Source: Rhodospirillales bacterium
Lineage (GTDB): Bacteria; Pseudomonadota; Alphaproteobacteria; Rhodospirillales; 2-12-FULL-67-15
Length of the DNA stretch: 64,000 nt
Assembly (NCBI GenBank): GCA_016872535.1
Contig: VGZQ01000002.1
Location: 9,514 to 73,513, forward strand
Direction of reading: 5' to 3'
The position numbers were made by a program, and so were the translations under genes. The notes beneath the pieces are model-generated. The model saw only the letters and a program-made list of their open reading frames with translations. It made no database searches and was not told the DNA's origin. This document shows, in pieces, positions 9,789 to 35,344 of this stretch; positions within the stretch are counted from its first letter, which is position 1; the number at the start of each line of letters is the position of its first letter.

Positions 9789-10994
9789 ATGTCCAGCCGC
9801 CTCGTGATCGTTTTTTGCCTGGTTCTGCCGCTCGCCTGGACGGGCGCGGCTTTCGCCGATCCCGTGGTCGGGCCGAGGCCGCAGGCGGTGGACGATATCC
9901 CGAGCGAAGGCGCGCCCGGCCACCGGGTGGAAACCTGGATCGGGGGGCTGGAGGCGCCCTGGTCGCTCGCGTTTCTGCCCGACGCGCGCGCGGGCGAATC
10001 CCCGCGCGCATCATCGAATGATGGGCCCCTATCGGGGCGCGCCCTGGTCAGCGAGCGGCCGGGTCGTATCCGCCTGATCCAAAACGGCGCGCTAAGGCCC
10101 GAACCCTACGCCCGGATCGACGTCGCCACCGGCGGCGAAGGCGGCCTGATGGGCTTGGCGCTCCATCCCGATTTTCCGCGGGCACCTTTCGTCTACGTCA
10201 TGCACACCTATTTTCCGGGGCCGCTGCCGGCGTTCGCCCGCCGCAACAAGGTCATCCGCCTCCGCCATCTCGGCGATACGGGCGCGTTCGATCGCGTCGT
10301 GCTCGACGGCATTCCGGGCGCCCTCAACCACAACGGCGGGCGGATCGGCTTCGGCCCCGACCGCATGCTCTACGTAACGACCGGGGAAATCTACGAAGCG
10401 GAGCTGGCCCAGGACCCCGCTTCCCTCGCCGGAAAAATTCTGCGCGTCACCCCCGAAGGCGACGTTCCCGCCGACAATCCCATTTCCGGATCGCCGGTCT
10501 GGTCGCTCGGCCACCGCAACCCGCAAGGGCTCGCCTGGCAGCCGGCGAACGGGGACCTGTTCGCCTCCGAGCACGGACCGTCGGGCGAATTTGGCCTCGG
10601 CGGCCACGACGAAATCAACCTGATCCTCCGGGGAGCCAATTACGGCTGGCCGCGCGCCGTCGGCGCGCCGAACGTGGCGGCCTACCGCGATCCGCTGGTG
10701 GTCTGGAAGACGCCGACCACGCCGCCCTCGGGCATCGCCTTCTGGCGCGGCGATCTTTACGTCGCGACGCTCCGCAGCCAAGCGCTGATGCGCATCGCGC
10801 TCGCCCGCGCCGGAAACGATTACCGGATCACGCGCATCGAGCGCTGGTTCGCGCACGGTGACAATCGTCCCGGGCGGCTGCGCGACGCCGTCGCCGGGCC
10901 CGACGGGGCGCTGTACGTGCTCACCAACAACCGCGACGGCCGCGGGCGGCCGCGCGAGGGCGACGACCGGATTCTGAGAATCACTCGACCCTGA
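9789..10994 (+). CDS. PQQ-dependent sugar dehydrogenase family (GSDH) protein, exported, with 17-aa insertion
   Basis: Signal peptide; GLEAPWSLAFLPD, GEGGLMGLALHPDF, HNGGRIGFGPD, GKILR, GHRNPQGL, DEINLI..GANYGWP, GRLRDAVAGPDGALYVLT. Confidence 0.92.
   Translation: MSSRLVIVFCLVLPLAWTGAAFADPVVGPRPQAVDDIPSEGAPGHRVETWIGGLEAPWSLAFLPDARAGESPRASSNDGPLSGRALVSERPGRIRLIQNGALRPEPYARIDVATGGEGGLMGLALHPDFPRAPFVYVMHTYFPGPLPAFARRNKVIRLRHLGDTGAFDRVVLDGIPGALNHNGGRIGFGPDRMLYVTTGEIYEAELAQDPASLAGKILRVTPEGDVPADNPISGSPVWSLGHRNPQGLAWQPANGDLFASEHGPSGEFGLGGHDEINLILRGANYGWPRAVGAPNVAAYRDPLVVWKTPTTPPSGIAFWRGDLYVATLRSQALMRIALARAGNDYRITRIERWFAHGDNRPGRLRDAVAGPDGALYVLTNNRDGRGRPREGDDRILRITRP
9986..10042 (+). repeat. Palindromic element inside the GSDH gene (sense orientation)
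   Basis: GCGCGCGGG-CGAATC-CCCGCGCGC-ATCATCGAATGATGGGCCCCTATCGGGGCGC; GCGCGC direct repeat at 9986 and 10037, 51 nt apart. Confidence 0.85.
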
Positions 10995-23912: not shown

Positions 23913-24575
23913 ATGAGCAAATTCACCCGCCTCGACGAACGCCTGCACGATTACCTGGTCGCGGTCGGGACGCGCGAGCATCCCGCCCTCGCGCGTCTTC
24001 GCGCCGAAACTGCGACCATGCCCAAGGCGGGCATGCAGATTTCCCCCGATCAGGGGGCGTTCATGCAATTTCTCGTGCGGTCACTCGGCGCGCGGGCGTG
24101 CCTCGAAATCGGCGTGTTCACCGGCTACAGCTCGCTGGCGGTCGCGCTGGCGCTGCCCGCCGACGGGCGGCTCACCGCCCTCGACGCGAACGCCGAATGG
24201 ACCGCCGTCGCCAGGCGCTATTGGGCCGAAGCCGGCGTCGCCGACAAGATCGAGTTTCGCCTCGGCCCGGCGGCCGGCTCCCTCGACGCCCTTCTCGCCG
24301 AAGGTCGCGCCGGAACGTACGACTTCGCCTTCATCGACGCCGACAAGGAAAACTACGAGCCGTACTTCGAGCGCTGCCTCGCGCTCGTGCGTCCGGGCGG
24401 CGTGATCGCCGCCGACAACGTGCTGTGGGACGGCGCGGTGATCGATCCCAAGGATACCGACGCGGATACCGAGGCGATCCGCGCTTTCAACCGCGCCCGC
24501 CACATCGACGAGCGCATCGATCTCTGCCTGGTGCCGATCGCCGACGGGCTTACGCTTGCCCGCAAGCGCGGCTGA
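23913..24575 (+). CDS. O-methyltransferase (Methyltransf_3, caffeoyl-CoA OMT/MdmC-like)
   Basis: MQISPDQG, LEIGVFTGYSSL, YDFAFIDADKENY, GGVIAADNVLWDG, PIADGLTLARK. Confidence 0.93.
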   Translation: MSKFTRLDERLHDYLVAVGTREHPALARLRAETATMPKAGMQISPDQGAFMQFLVRSLGARACLEIGVFTGYSSLAVALALPADGRLTALDANAEWTAVARRYWAEAGVADKIEFRLGPAAGSLDALLAEGRAGTYDFAFIDADKENYEPYFERCLALVRPGGVIAADNVLWDGAVIDPKDTDADTEAIRAFNRARHIDERIDLCLVPIADGLTLARKRG

Positions 24576-24601: not shown

Positions 24602-25603
24602 TCACTTCGGCGCGAATTCGGGAAAGGCGCGCCTCAGGTTGCGCTCGATGCGCTCGCGCACCGGAAGCTCGGGCTCGACCGGGACGAATTCCTGGCCGGT
24701 CATCTGCTCGTAAAGGCGCACGTACTTGGCGCTGAACTCGGCGAGCGTCGCGGGCGGAATTTCGGGGATCGGCTCCTTGTAGGGATCGCAGCGCGCCGCG
24801 ATCCAAAGTCTCAGGAATTCCTTGTCGAGGCTGTCGGGTTCGAGGCCCTGGTCCGCGCGCTCGGGATAGGTGGCGGCGATCCAGTAACGGCTGGAATCGG
24901 GCGTGTGAATTTCGTCGGCGACGCGCAGCCTTCCTTCGCGGTCGAGGCCGAATTCGTACTTGGTGTCGACCAGGATCAACCCTTGCGCGGCGGCGAGATC
25001 CCGCCCGCGCCGGAACAGCGCCATGCCTAAGCGCTCGATCTCGCGCCAGCGATCGGCGGGCACCAGGCCGCGCGCGACGATCTCGGCGGCGGTGATCGGC
25101 ACGTCGTGGGCGGTCGCGCCTTTGTCCGTGGTGGCGCCCTTGGTGGTCGGCGTGATCAGGGTCGCGGACAGGCGCTGGTTCTTGCGCATGCCGTCGGGAA
25201 GCCGGTGGCCGTAAACGACGCGCGCGCCCGTCGCGTATTGGGTCCAGATGCTGGTCGAGGTCGCGCCGGTGAGATAATCGCGCACCACCACCTCGACCGG
25301 GATCATGTCGAGCTTGATCCCGACCGTCACGTTCGGGTCCGGGTAGGCGAGCACGTGGCTCGGGCAGACGTCGGCGGTGGCGTCGAACCAATAGCGCGCC
25401 GTTTGCGTCAGCACTTGGCCCTTGAACGGAACCGCCGCCAACACCTGATCGAACGCCGACTGGCGGTCGGTCGCGATCATGATCCGCCGGCCGTCGGGCA
25501 GGTCGTAGGAATCGCGTACCTTGCCGCGCTGGAAATTGGGCAGCCACGGAAAGTGAGCGTCGGTCAGACAGCGGCCGAGGCTGTTCAAGTAATCGATCAC
25601 CAT
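24602..25603 (-). CDS. purC: SAICAR synthase, long (Ade1/plant-like) family
   Basis: RGKVRD, TDRQSAFD, PFKGQVL, IPVEVVVRDYLTG, LVDTKYEFG, ADEIHTPDSSRYW, LDKEFLR. Confidence 0.92.
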   Translation of the reverse strand: MVIDYLNSLGRCLTDAHFPWLPNFQRGKVRDSYDLPDGRRIMIATDRQSAFDQVLAAVPFKGQVLTQTARYWFDATADVCPSHVLAYPDPNVTVGIKLDMIPVEVVVRDYLTGATSTSIWTQYATGARVVYGHRLPDGMRKNQRLSATLITPTTKGATTDKGATAHDVPITAAEIVARGLVPADRWREIERLGMALFRRGRDLAAAQGLILVDTKYEFGLDREGRLRVADEIHTPDSSRYWIAATYPERADQGLEPDSLDKEFLRLWIAARCDPYKEPIPEIPPATLAEFSAKYVRLYEQMTGQEFVPVEPELPVRERIERNLRRAFPEFAPK

Positions 25604-28001: not shown

Positions 28002-29339
<1,338 letters not shown>

Positions 29340-30533: not shown

Positions 30534-30663
30534 GCCCGGCCGCCAAAAACCCGCGGAAACGGCGCGGAATCGAGATAACGCGGACCATTTGTTTTCGCGG
30601 GGACCCCCTGCTATACCAACCTCGTTCAGCCGCGATTTCCGCCTCCCCAACCCCGGCCGACCC

Positions 30664-31428
30664 ATGACCCGGCGCAGACGCATCTATGAGGGCAAGGCCA
30701 AGGTCCTGTTCGAAGGACCCGAGCCCGGAACCCTGGTCCAGTACTTCAAGGACGACACCGCCGTCGAAGGCGACGACAAGACCTCGGTCGTCACCGGCAA
30801 GGGCGTCCTCAACAACCGGATTTCCGAATACCTGATGACGCGCTTGAACGAAATCGGCGTGCCGACCCACTTCGTCCGCCGCCTCAACATGCGCGAGCAA
30901 TTGGTGCGCGAGGCCGAAATCATTCCGATCCAGGTGGTGGTGCGCAACGCCGCCGCCGGATCGCTCGCCCAGCGCTTCGGCATCGCCGAGGGCACGGCGC
31001 TGCCGCGCTCGATCGTCGAATTCTACTACAAGGCCGAAAACGGCCAGCGGCCGATGGTGTCGGAAGAACACATCACCGCCTTCGGTTGGGCCGCGCCCGA
31101 GGATCTGGACGAGATGATGAATCTCGCGCTCAGGGTCAACGACTTTCTCTCCGGGTTGTTCCTCGGCATCGGCCTCAGGCTGGTCGACTTCAAGGTCGAA
31201 TTCGGGCGCTTGTGGGAAAACGATTACATGCGGATCGTGCTCGCCGACGAAATCAGCCCGGACAATTGCCGGCTGTGGGACATCAAGACCAGCGAGCGGT
31301 TCGACCGCGACCGGGTGATCCGCGGCCAGGGCCCGGTCGAGGAAGTCTATCAGGAAGTCGCCCGCCGGCTCGGCATCCTGCCCGAGGGCGGCCCGCGCGA
31401 CCTCAAGGGCCCCAAGGTGATGCAGTAG
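30664..31428 (+). CDS. purC: PurC homologue (bacterial short family) with substituted catalytic-site motifs
   Basis: [44 protein letters not shown]; located directly before purS. Confidence 0.9.
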
Positions 31429-31456: not shown

Positions 31457-31699
31457 TTGAAGGCCCGCATCCACGTCACGCTCAAGAACGGCGTCCTCGA
31501 TCCGCAAGGCAAGGCGATCGGGCACGCGCTCGCCGGCCTCGGCTTCGCCGGCATCGGCGAAGTGCGCCAGGGCAAGTTCATCGAGCTGGAATTGGCCGAG
31601 CGCGACAAAAATCGCGCGCGCGAATCGGTCGACGCCATGTGCCGCAAGCTGCTCGCCAACACCGTGATCGAGAACTACACGATCGAGATCGCCGACTGA
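31457..31699 (+). CDS. purS: FGAM synthase subunit PurS
   Basis: TTG start; [30 protein letters not shown]. Confidence 0.96.
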
Positions 31700-32388
31700 T
31701 GCGCGCCGCCGTCATCGTCTTTCCCGGCTCCAACTGCGACCGCGACGTCCAGGTCGCGCTCGCGCAGAGCATGGGCCGGGAGCCGGCGATGGTCTGGCAC
31801 CGCGAAACCGAGCTGCCCCGGGTCGACCTGATCGTGCTCCCCGGCGGCTTTTCCTACGGCGACTATCTCAGGAGCGGCGCCATGGCCGCGCGTTCGCCGG
31901 TGATGCGCGAAGTGATCGCCCGCGCCGAAAAGGGCGTACCGGTGCTCGGCATCTGCAACGGATTCCAGGTGCTGACCGAAACCGGGCTCCTGCCCGGCGC
32001 CCTGATGCGCAACGCCGGCCTGAAGTTCATCTGCCGCGACGTGTGGCTGAAGGTGGAGACCGCCGACAGCGTTTTCACCGGCGGCTACGCCAGGGATCAG
32101 GTGATCCGCATCCCGGTCGCCCACGCCGACGGCAACTATTTCGCCGACGCCGAGACCTTGAAGCGGCTGGAGGCCGAAGGCCGGATCGCGTTCCGCTATT
32201 GCGACGACCGCGGCCGCGTCACCGCGGAGGCCAACATCAACGGCAGCCTCGGCAACATCGCCGGTATCCTGAGCGAAAAGCGCAACGTGCTCGGCCTGAT
32301 GCCGCACCCCGAGCGGCTGGCCGATCCGGAACTCGGCGGCACCGACGGGCGCGCCATGTTCGACCATTTCATCCGCGTTCTGCACTGA
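31699..32388 (+). CDS. purQ: FGAM synthase glutaminase subunit PurQ
   Basis: TGATG overlap; [34 protein letters not shown]. Confidence 0.97.
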
Positions 32389-32411
32389 TCGCGCCCCGCC
32401 GGAGAGTCGCC

Positions 32412-33143
32412 TTGCTGATCCCGCTGCACGACGAGAACCCGCTCCGCCACATCCGTTTCCAGTACGTCACGGTCGCGATCATCGCCGTGTGCGTCGCGGT
32501 GTTTCTCTACCAATCGACGCTGGACGTCCGCGCTGAGCGGGTGTTCGTGATGAGCTATGGCGCGATTCCGGCGGCCGTGTTCGGCCTCGCCGAGCGCGGG
32601 GCTGAGATCTCGGCGATCCCGCCGTCCGTCACGCTTCTCACCAGCATGTTTCTGCACGGCGGCTTCATGCACCTCGCCGGCAACATGCTGTTCCTGTGGG
32701 TGCTCGGCGACAACGTCGAGGACGCCATGGGCCACGCGCGCTACGTCGCGTTCTATCTGTTGTCGGGCCTCGCCGCGGCGCTGGCGCACGCCGGGCTCGA
32801 TCCCGTCTCCAAGATTCCGATGATCGGGGCAAGCGGCGCGATCTCCGGCGTCATCGGCGCCTACTTGATTCTGCACCCCAAGGCGCCGATCAAGACTCTC
32901 GTTCTGCGCATGATCGTTTATCTCCCGGCCTGGGTGGTGCTGGGCCTCTGGTTCGCGTTCCAGCTGATCAACGTGGCGATGACGCCGAAGGGCGCGGGCG
33001 GCGTCGCGTGGTGGGCGCACATCGGCGGCTTCGTCGCCGGTGCGATCCTGATTTTCCTGTTCCGCAAGCGCGACGTGACGCTGTTCGACCGCGGCTACGT
33101 GCCGAAATCACGCCGCCGTTCCATCATTCCCAATTCGGAGTAG
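32412..33143 (+). CDS. Rhomboid family intramembrane serine protease
   Basis: [51 protein letters not shown]. Confidence 0.93.
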
Positions 33144-33148
33144 CGCGG

Positions 33149-35344
<2,196 letters not shown>

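Follow-up and report, generated by a model that had tools for sequence, protein, structure and literature searches.

An operonic PurC homologue with substituted metal- and aspartate-site residues, and an intact long-family PurC nearby, in a Rhodospirillales bacterium

PurC, a textbook housekeeping enzyme, is also a drug target, and in genome annotation any operonic purC is called a SAICAR synthetase. The locus described here raises the question of whether that assignment always holds. A 64-kb stretch of the genome of a freshwater Rhodospirillales bacterium (contig VGZQ01000002.1; hereafter the window, meaning the whole of the DNA analysed) carries two PurC homologues, one heading a cluster of purine genes and altered at positions that are catalytic in the family, and one of the long family that is intact. 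A preliminary description of the locus proposed that the operonic copy is catalytically degenerate, that an acquired copy took over SAICAR synthesis, and that the native one persists as a full-length pseudoenzyme or has a new activity or scaffolding role. The operonic gene is referred to here as purC* and its product as PurC*.

The purC* gene and its cluster

purC* (30664..31428, plus strand) is an intact open reading frame of 254 codons, and its translation is a full-length 254-aa homologue of the short PurC family in which the subsite for MgB, MgC and aspartate is degenerate. Domain and fold are those of the family: Pfam PF01259 (SAICAR_synt) matches residues 7–235 with 226.6 bits, and the best Foldseek matches are 3kre, 4fe2 and 2gqr (E 5e-24 to 1e-20; TM 0.70–0.78). 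The AF2 model has a mean pLDDT of 69.9, a moderate value from a shallow alignment, and falls below 50 at residues 215–222; the low pLDDT of the remodelled loop described below carries no reading, because conserved N-terminal strands are also modelled with low confidence.

The cluster headed by purC* is a typical alphaproteobacterial purine cluster, with the order purB, an ATPase-inhibitor zeta gene (minus strand), TANGO2, purC*, purS, purQ, a rhomboid gene, purL, bolA and grxD. The gene after purC* is purS (31457..31699, plus strand; Pfam PF02700), followed by purQ (31699..32388, plus strand; Pfam GATase_5), the rhomboid gene (about 32400–33143) and purL (33149..35344, plus strand), which codes for the small PurL and has a TTG start with GGAG in front; the related loci L166 and L171 have an identical gene order. 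The adenylosuccinate lyase gene purB (28002..29339, plus strand; Lyase_1/ADSL_C in syntenic loci) is located between both purC genes, and an MFS transporter gene and a 334-aa open reading frame with a weak, sub-threshold AAT match lie between the long purC and purB. There is no third SAICAR_synt copy within the 64-kb window.

Upstream of purC*, 48–75 nt from the ATG, there is a promoter-like element, TTGTTT-N16-CTATAC (30589..30616, plus strand), with the palindrome GGGGACCCCC in its spacer. The element is kept in eight related loci (alignment A1), in which TTGT and CCTGCTATA are invariant, and we infer that it is a promoter, its function being a prediction. Nowhere in the window does a match to an Rfam family attain the gathering threshold, and no riboswitch or other known RNA is seen in front of purC*; as regards expression, no RNA run contains more than about 20% of the words of the gene.

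Substituted and retained residues in PurC*

The preliminary description quoted IPIQVVVRN (residues 87–95), KDDTAVEG (29–36), FDRDRVIRG (213–221), a 12-residue motif (121–132) and two codons (CAG at 30931 and CGG at 31048), all of which translation places where they were reported. Its substitutions E90Q, D129R and R215I are also numbered correctly: when PurC* is aligned with HMMER to chain 2gqr (E. coli PurC), Q90 corresponds to E90, R129 to D129 and I219 to R215. In the C-terminal part the two numberings are offset, such that K215R of the window protein is K211R in E. coli, and D195 and R203 are D191 and R199. The alignment adds further changes to those already listed: S/T33A, F35E, N36G, N37D, D125E, L127G, K211R (E. 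coli numbering), F218V and D221G.

The functional meaning of these positions was taken from human PAICS, onto which PurC* was mapped; the PAICS sequence used reproduces all 24 residue numbers given in a quantum-chemical study (PMC9376930), which validates it. In that study, PAICS E97 and D137 bridge MgB and MgC. The two ions contact CAIR through its carboxylate and N3, and ATP through the gamma-phosphate; they also stabilise the oxyanion and the transition states. The equivalents in PurC* are Q90 and R129, neither of which is an acidic ligand. Q90 (codon CAG, 30931..30933, plus strand) replaces the Glu that bridges MgB and MgC, and is invariant in all seven members of the clade described below as well as present in the nearest partly degenerate relatives. 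The second site lies in residues 125–129, ENGQR (31036..31050, plus strand), where D125E, L127G and D129R are found and Arg (CGG, 31048) stands in place of the Asp bridging MgB and MgC; E125, G127 and R129 are invariant inside the clade.

Two other segments are concerned with aspartate. Residues 32–43 (30757..30792, plus strand) form a remodelled loop in place of the canonical A[TS]AFNNxK, without the Thr/Ser that binds an aspartate carboxylate and without the Asn that hydrogen-bonds ATP; the loop was mapped onto T40/N43 of human PAICS and S33/D36 of E. coli, and its positions vary inside the clade. Residues 208–228, including FDRDRVIRG (31285..31347, plus strand), correspond to the helix near the C terminus with which true PurC binds aspartate, and carry K215R, F218V, R219I and D221G, with positions 218, 219, 225 and 228 varying inside the clade. 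PAICS T40, K191, K228 and R232 hold both aspartate carboxylates and N43 hydrogen-bonds ATP (PMC9376930); the PurC* equivalents are A33, K177, R215 and I219, and G36. Of the five aspartate and gamma-phosphate contacts, three are lost (S/T33A, N36G and R219I), a fourth is conservatively changed (K215R) and K177 is kept. The mapping to PAICS therefore indicates that both MgB/MgC ligands have been lost together with three of these five contacts. We note that Arg129 could in principle act as a stand-in for Mg beside the CAIR carboxylate.

The remainder of the active site is retained. The ATP-site motifs GKAK, DFKVEFG and DEISPD, which the preliminary description listed as remaining, are found at 10–13, 175–181 and 195–200, and G10, K11, A12, K13, K123, E179 and D195 are all present; the ATP-loop residues, K123 and the MgA ligands are invariant or nearly so across 43 aligned homologues. 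The CAIR ribose and phosphate contacts, as known from the E. coli enzyme (PMC3261824), are also present (R94, S100, D175 and R203), with one clade member, P0006, carrying R94L.

The NCBIfam model TIGR00081, the PurC equivalog, has a curated cutoff of 189.9 bits, and PurC* scores below it (176.9 bits), as do the other clade members (162–175), whereas partly degenerate relatives score 207–215 and canonical relatives 214–217. Canonical short PurC (E. coli 2GQR and 2GQS, Ehrlichia chaffeensis 3KRE; TIGR00081; EC 6.3.2.6) has the same fold and length as PurC*, with identities of 48% to 3KRE in the Foldseek alignment and 78–82% to canonical relatives such as Azospirillum PurC; it also heads purC-purS-purQ-purL, and its ATP loop, MgA ligands and ribotide-phosphate contacts are as in PurC*. 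Unlike canonical short PurC, PurC* is without E90, D129, Ser/Thr33, Asn36 (of the TAFN loop) and R215 in E. coli numbering, is under the TIGR00081 cutoff, and has an aspartate subsite that is under relaxed selection. Fold, domain and gene context place PurC* in the PurC superfamily, but it departs from the SAICAR synthetase equivalog on three defining points: its score against the curated cutoff, its Mg ligands and its aspartate contacts. An annotation of purC* as EC 6.3.2.6 would need supporting evidence.

Selection, the second PurC and related loci

Six other proteins with 89–94% identity carry the PurC* set of changes (P0003–P0007 and the PurC of locus L182), and Q90, E125, G127, R129, R215 and G221 are common to all seven clade members. 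In 149 canonical relatives, 181 positions reach a conservation of at least 90%. The clade differs at only 16 of them, and these lie at residue 90 or within 32–43, 125–129 and 208–228, the sole changed position elsewhere being 97, where the change is conservative; on this comparison, the changes are not due to chance. Half of the 16 are newly fixed in the clade (D37, Q90, E125, G127, R129, R212, R215 and G221) and the other half are variable (35, 36, 41, 97, 218, 219, 225 and 228), as compared to 154 invariant positions among the 165 conserved positions that are retained (Fisher p = 2.5e-5).

Within the clade, purC* has a dN/dS of 0.135 (Nei-Gojobori; dS about 0.37–0.39), the lowest among nine neighbouring genes; the ratio is 0.19 for purS, 0.17 for purQ, purB and the long purC, and 0.23–0.33 for TANGO2, the zeta gene, the MFS gene and the 334-aa gene. 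The persistence of a full-length operonic gene, as initially proposed, is supported by this value (0.13), which excludes simple decay and fits a pseudoenzyme or a new role. Two features expected of a pseudoenzyme are present: residues central to catalysis in the parent family have been lost, and the open reading frame is intact in all seven sequences and under purifying selection. When partitioned (21 pairs of 7 sequences), the ratio is 0.076 for the 215 codons outside the remodelled subsite, vs 0.080 in canonical Azospirillum and Dongia PurC, and 0.37 for the 39 subsite codons, vs 0.16 in canonical PurC. By these measures, the fold and surfaces and the sites for ATP and ribotide are constrained like those of a real enzyme, the aspartate subsite is relaxed, and the former metal site has newly fixed residues.

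The second PurC (24602..25603, minus strand) is an intact 333-aa protein of the long family and is presumed to be a working SAICAR synthetase. It scores 442.4 bits with NF009251 (cutoff 371), placing it in that equivalog, and in alignments to M. abscessus PurC (6yvq) and yeast Ade1 (1a48) it keeps all of the catalytic motifs, GKVRD, SAFD, PVEVVVR, HD, DTKYEFG, DEIHTPDSSRYW and DKEFLR, in agreement with the earlier reading of this copy as intact, which had not given its strand. The long form (yeast Ade1 1A48 and 2CNQ, M. abscessus 6YVQ; NF009251) shares the PF01259 superfamily with PurC* but is about 80 residues longer, and is the family of the second copy and not of PurC*; the two window proteins are about 23% identical. 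That the long copy supplies SAICAR synthesis is, from its sequence, most likely.

The long purC sits 5 kb upstream of purC* in each clade contig that reaches that far (five clade loci do so), with the shared order long purC (minus strand), MFS, 334-aa open reading frame, purB, zeta, TANGO2, purC* and purS; this order is seen in the window and in L081, L171, L170 and L182–184, with the L170 long PurC being a partial N-terminal fragment of 89% identity. Recent horizontal acquisition of the long copy was considered and is rejected: its GC and GC3 match its neighbours (GC3 0.87 vs 0.85–0.92), it is syntenic in diverged relatives, and its family is present in Azospirillum. The preliminary proposal is thus partly supported: residues are lost from the operonic protein and the long copy is intact, but a takeover by an acquired copy is not supported in the form proposed.

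Seven Azospirillum species (A. brasilense, A. argentinense, A. thermophilum, A. oryzae, A. ramasamyi, A. lipoferum 4B and Azospirillum sp. B510) have an intact long-family PurC, located on chromids in unrelated gene contexts, and their operonic PurC is canonical or differs solely at D129 (N, H, K or S). Two-copy redundancy is old and permissive, and is an insufficient cause of degeneration, because Azospirillum carries both families with a canonical operonic PurC. The Azospirillum variants also bear on the argument that degeneracy would be doubtful if the substitutions were common in sole-copy PurCs. This applies to them singly, as D129 alone is commonly N, H, K or S in Azospirillum and a methanogen (an archaeon) has a sole PurC that ends before R215 (PMC3261824). 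Individual residues are thus not strictly indispensable and no single substitution proves inactivity; that PurC* is inactive is argued from the losses taken together.

The closest non-clade relatives by purB identity (75–77%) have an adjoining long copy and a partly degenerate PurC: P0018 carries N36H and E90Q, and P0011 carries E90Q, K215R and R219S, each with the long copy adjacent. This suggests a stepwise loss in which E90 may have gone first. The neighbour-joining tree does not place the partly degenerate group beside the fully degenerate clade, and the kinship of the two rests on synteny and purB identity.

Degenerate operonic PurCs are also found elsewhere. A contig scan, in a set that does not include the genome of the window, returned 80 GTDB loci of at most 80% identity, and 58 of these are canonical. 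L050, L060, L068 and L071 form a separate group with E90I/V, K177R, K39R, K215R/H and R219D/E; the same loop is changed, with an N37D identical to that of the window clade. A search with L068 yields about 22 protein clusters of this group, early forms of which have only E90V/I, D129N and K177R. The group is also operonic (purC*-purS-purQ), scores 168 bits with TIGR00081 and has a dN/dS of 0.04–0.05; degeneration arose there in parallel, with purifying selection acting on the gene. A Stellaceae MAG (L029) independently has D129R together with a loop deletion. Among the 61 nearest full-coverage representatives of 50%-identity clusters, 24 are without canonical residues at key sites, a count that measures diversity and not frequency, since cluster representatives over-sample fast-evolving outliers; most of the 24 keep K13, D175, E179, D195 and R203. 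The gene context was examined for three divergent representatives. L175 (38.7% GC) has the order purB-hydrolase-purC*-purQ-purL with purS absent, and in L178 and L180 purC* is located beside purB and zeta, with purS, purQ and purL missing from their usual place.

None of the 80 GTDB loci, independent degenerate clades included, has a long copy within 10 kb, and a metagenome scan with the long copy gave only relatives of 45–68% identity, none with a short PurC nearby. Co-occurrence of a degenerate PurC with a second PurC is observed as synteny in the window's own lineage only, and these observations are phylogenetically non-independent.

Possible roles of PurC*

The reading we favour, with a probability of roughly 0.55, is that PurC* is a selectively retained derivative without efficient SAICAR synthesis that binds nucleotide and probably ribotide phosphate, with the activity itself supplied by the long PurC. 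In this scheme, the long-family PurC would make SAICAR, and PurC* would bind ATP/ADP-Mg and probably a ribotide 5'-phosphate but be unable to activate the carboxylate or to hold aspartate. Co-expressed with PurS, PurQ and PurL from what is predicted to be its own conserved promoter, it may, more speculatively, assist the purine machinery without catalysis of its own, by binding ligands, by docking or by regulation. PurC is reported to be a hub of purine-enzyme interaction networks in E. coli and P. aeruginosa (bioRxiv 10.1101/2025.07.15.664858), and a PurC of A. brasilense has been recovered using the PII protein GlnZ as bait; on both grounds, a role in docking or regulation is plausible. As to its history, a long-standing redundancy of the kind seen in Azospirillum could have permitted a stepwise loss, in which E90 would have gone first (as in the nearest relatives), then R219 and K215, and then D129 and the 33–37 loop.

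The substitutions are not sequencing or assembly errors or a community chimera. The source data are of a metagenome type and reads of other PurCs partially overlap the window sequence, but three independent lake-water metagenome assemblies match purC* with no differences, a fourth source, a groundwater run, contains a near-identical variant (differing at 9 of 787 nt, with codons 90 and 129 unchanged), and the same residue set recurs in the six diverged sequences from other samples, by which an artefact is refuted. That purC* is decaying after redundancy and is intact so far by chance is very improbable: the loss of catalytic residues, the intact paralogue nearby and the relaxed subsite would all be expected of a decaying gene, but the reading frame is free of stops and frameshifts in all seven clade members and throughout the independent clade (about 22 clusters), and the dN/dS of 0.13 at a dS of about 0.39 is the lowest of the neighbourhood and, outside the subsite (0.076), equals that of canonical PurC.

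Strong purifying selection, the maintained operon position and promoter, and the intact ATP, MgA and ribotide contacts would also suit a working SAICAR synthetase isozyme with an altered site, in which Arg129 and Gln90 serve for Mg and Arg215 for aspartate, and the two PurCs are redundant or differentially regulated. The tolerance of D129 changes in Azospirillum and of a missing R215 in the archaeal sole PurC points the same way, as does the coexistence of both families with canonical residues in Azospirillum, where two active isozymes would be normal. We nonetheless consider an active isozyme unlikely, as both MgB/MgC ligands are lost together and the quantum-chemical model has these ions binding the substrates and stabilising the transition states; the drift of the aspartate loop and helix positions in the clade (dN/dS 0.37) is unexpected for an aspartate binder, and the score is under the equivalog cutoff. 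Rather doubtful, too, is a neofunctionalised ATP-dependent enzyme with a changed nucleophile or acyl substrate, in which, for instance, ammonia or an amine other than aspartate would react with CAIR or a similar ribotide. The new fixation of half of the changed positions suggests that a new constraint has been gained and not simply that an old one was relaxed, the independent clade is altered at these positions too (N37D and K215R identically), the ATP, MgA and ribotide sites are retained, PurC paralogues with related chemistry have been proposed for archaea (PMC3261824), and very divergent PurC-like open reading frames are maintained at loci without purS, purQ and purL alongside. The acyl-phosphate chemistry of the fold, however, depends on Mg ions whose ligands are gone, the replacements differ between clades (Q vs I/V at 90, and I/A/S vs D/E at 219), which argues against one shared substrate, and the linked genes at these loci suggest no new pathway. 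A broader proposal, to be held only tentatively, is that PurC* belongs to a recurrent and selectively maintained class of ATP- and ribotide-binding proteins in the Alphaproteobacteria with a non-SAICAR function (a regulator or docking subunit, or a new ligase), with at least three independent origins and persisting without adjacent purS, purQ and purL.

In the literature searched, nothing joins 'SAICAR synthetase' and 'pseudoenzyme', and on purC1/purC2 or two purC genes only an archaeal survey (PMC3261824) and the P. aeruginosa interaction preprint were found. The nearest precedent there is the truncated second purC-like gene of Thermococcus kodakaraensis and T. gammatolerans, possibly inactive or with another function (PMC3261824). 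These genes resemble PurC* in being without R215, a CAIR/aspartate contact, and in having another PurC in the genome, but they are archaeal C-terminal truncations mentioned in passing, whereas PurC* is full length with its Mg ligands lost and the selection on it measured, and its state, unlike the Thermococcus case, recurs across alphaproteobacterial lineages. By comparison of the sequences, PurC* appears to be a pseudoenzyme, or an enzyme put to a new use, that has not been described before in this well-known pathway. HisZ, an inactive HisRS paralogue that regulates HisG, has a proven partner and function. PurC* is similar in being an enzyme homologue seemingly without catalytic capacity that is conserved in a biosynthetic cluster and retains ligand-binding residues; the partner of HisZ is proven, whereas the role of PurC* is predicted only.

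The graded series that runs from Azospirillum, with two intact copies, through E90Q and E90Q with R219S to the full set, together with the parallel clade, would be a natural experiment in redundancy turning an enzyme into something else if the operonic copy is dead yet conserved. In that case, metabolic reconstructions that rely on the operonic copy assign the SAICAR step to the wrong gene. If the favoured reading is true, de novo purine synthesis would hold an unrecognised pseudoenzyme, and the non-catalytic roles proposed for PurC in assemblies would become testable.

Gene order and the upstream region of the degenerate purC

Throughout the lineage of the degenerate operonic purC (window 30664-31428), a gene coding for a rhomboid-family membrane protease (window about 32400-33143) lies between purQ and purL, as seen in the window and in the homologous loci L081, L171, L166 and L182; its stop codon is followed after 5 nt by the TTG start of purL. 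In one clade member (L182, 1696-3811; also L183 and L184), genes for a BrnT-type toxin and a SocA_Panacea protein, together with ORFs of 123 aa and 248 aa, are inserted between purS and purQ, splitting the operon 3' of the degenerate purC and purS. A class I O-methyltransferase gene adjoins the long-family purC in the window (23913-24575) and in L182, and is located between purB and zeta in L171 (5275-5937), the differing positions reflecting local rearrangement within the clade.

Upstream of the degenerate purC is a promoter-like element, TTGTTT-N16-CTATA(C/T) (window 30589-30616), which is conserved in an alignment of the upstream regions of eight related loci. The spacer is occupied by a possible operator, a G/C palindrome that reads GGGGGGACCCCC in most members of the clade. 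The ATG of the degenerate purC is not preceded by a Shine-Dalgarno sequence.

Altered operonic PurC proteins in other lineages

A second clade of degenerate operonic PurC, independent of the window clade, is represented by L050, L068 and L071 (gene at 10001-10762 in each), L060 (8611-9372) and proteins P0241-P0262. It includes about 22 protein clusters, with two complete MAG chromosomes among the sources, and is characterized by the changes E90I/V/M, K177R, K39R and R219D/E and a remodelled 33-37 loop; N37D is common to both clades. The dN/dS of the second-clade genes is 0.04-0.05, and there is no long-family copy within 10 kb of them.

The PurC of L029 (3091-3846), from a Stellaceae MAG, has an independently arisen D129R and an FN loop shortened by a two-residue deletion, retains E90, K215 and R219, and scores 193.9 bits against the PurC equivalog model TIGR00081, slightly above the cutoff of 189.9 bits. 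The operonic PurC of many Azospirillum species, among them A. brasilense, has N, H, K or S in place of the Mg-bridging Asp129 in an otherwise canonical active site (P0071, P0030, P0064, P0111 and others); these species also have a chromid-borne long-family PurC.

P0121, which shares 96% identity with the long-family PurC of the window, has a source MAG named 'Acidimicrobiia bacterium' at NCBI; the relatives, in contrast, are all Rhodospirillales, and the contig is probably mis-binned. P0002 is encoded on a contig of 1339 bp and, at 385 aa, exceeds the expected length by 130 residues. Its scores of 553 and 577 bits, each from a separate search, are above expectation for only 66% identity; a partial tandem duplication or a chimeric gene call may be the explanation.

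More divergent PurC-like genes

Three PurC-like ORFs, P0346 (L175, 3366-4130), P0366 (L178, 5056-5868) and P0369 (L180, 10001-10777), are far more divergent (45-51% identity) and lack both E90 and D129. In L175, where purS is absent, purQ and purL come immediately after the degenerate purC; in L178 and L180 it adjoins purB and zeta, and purS, purQ and purL are absent from their usual place. A degenerate PurC is therefore retained even where adjacent FGAM-synthetase genes are missing.
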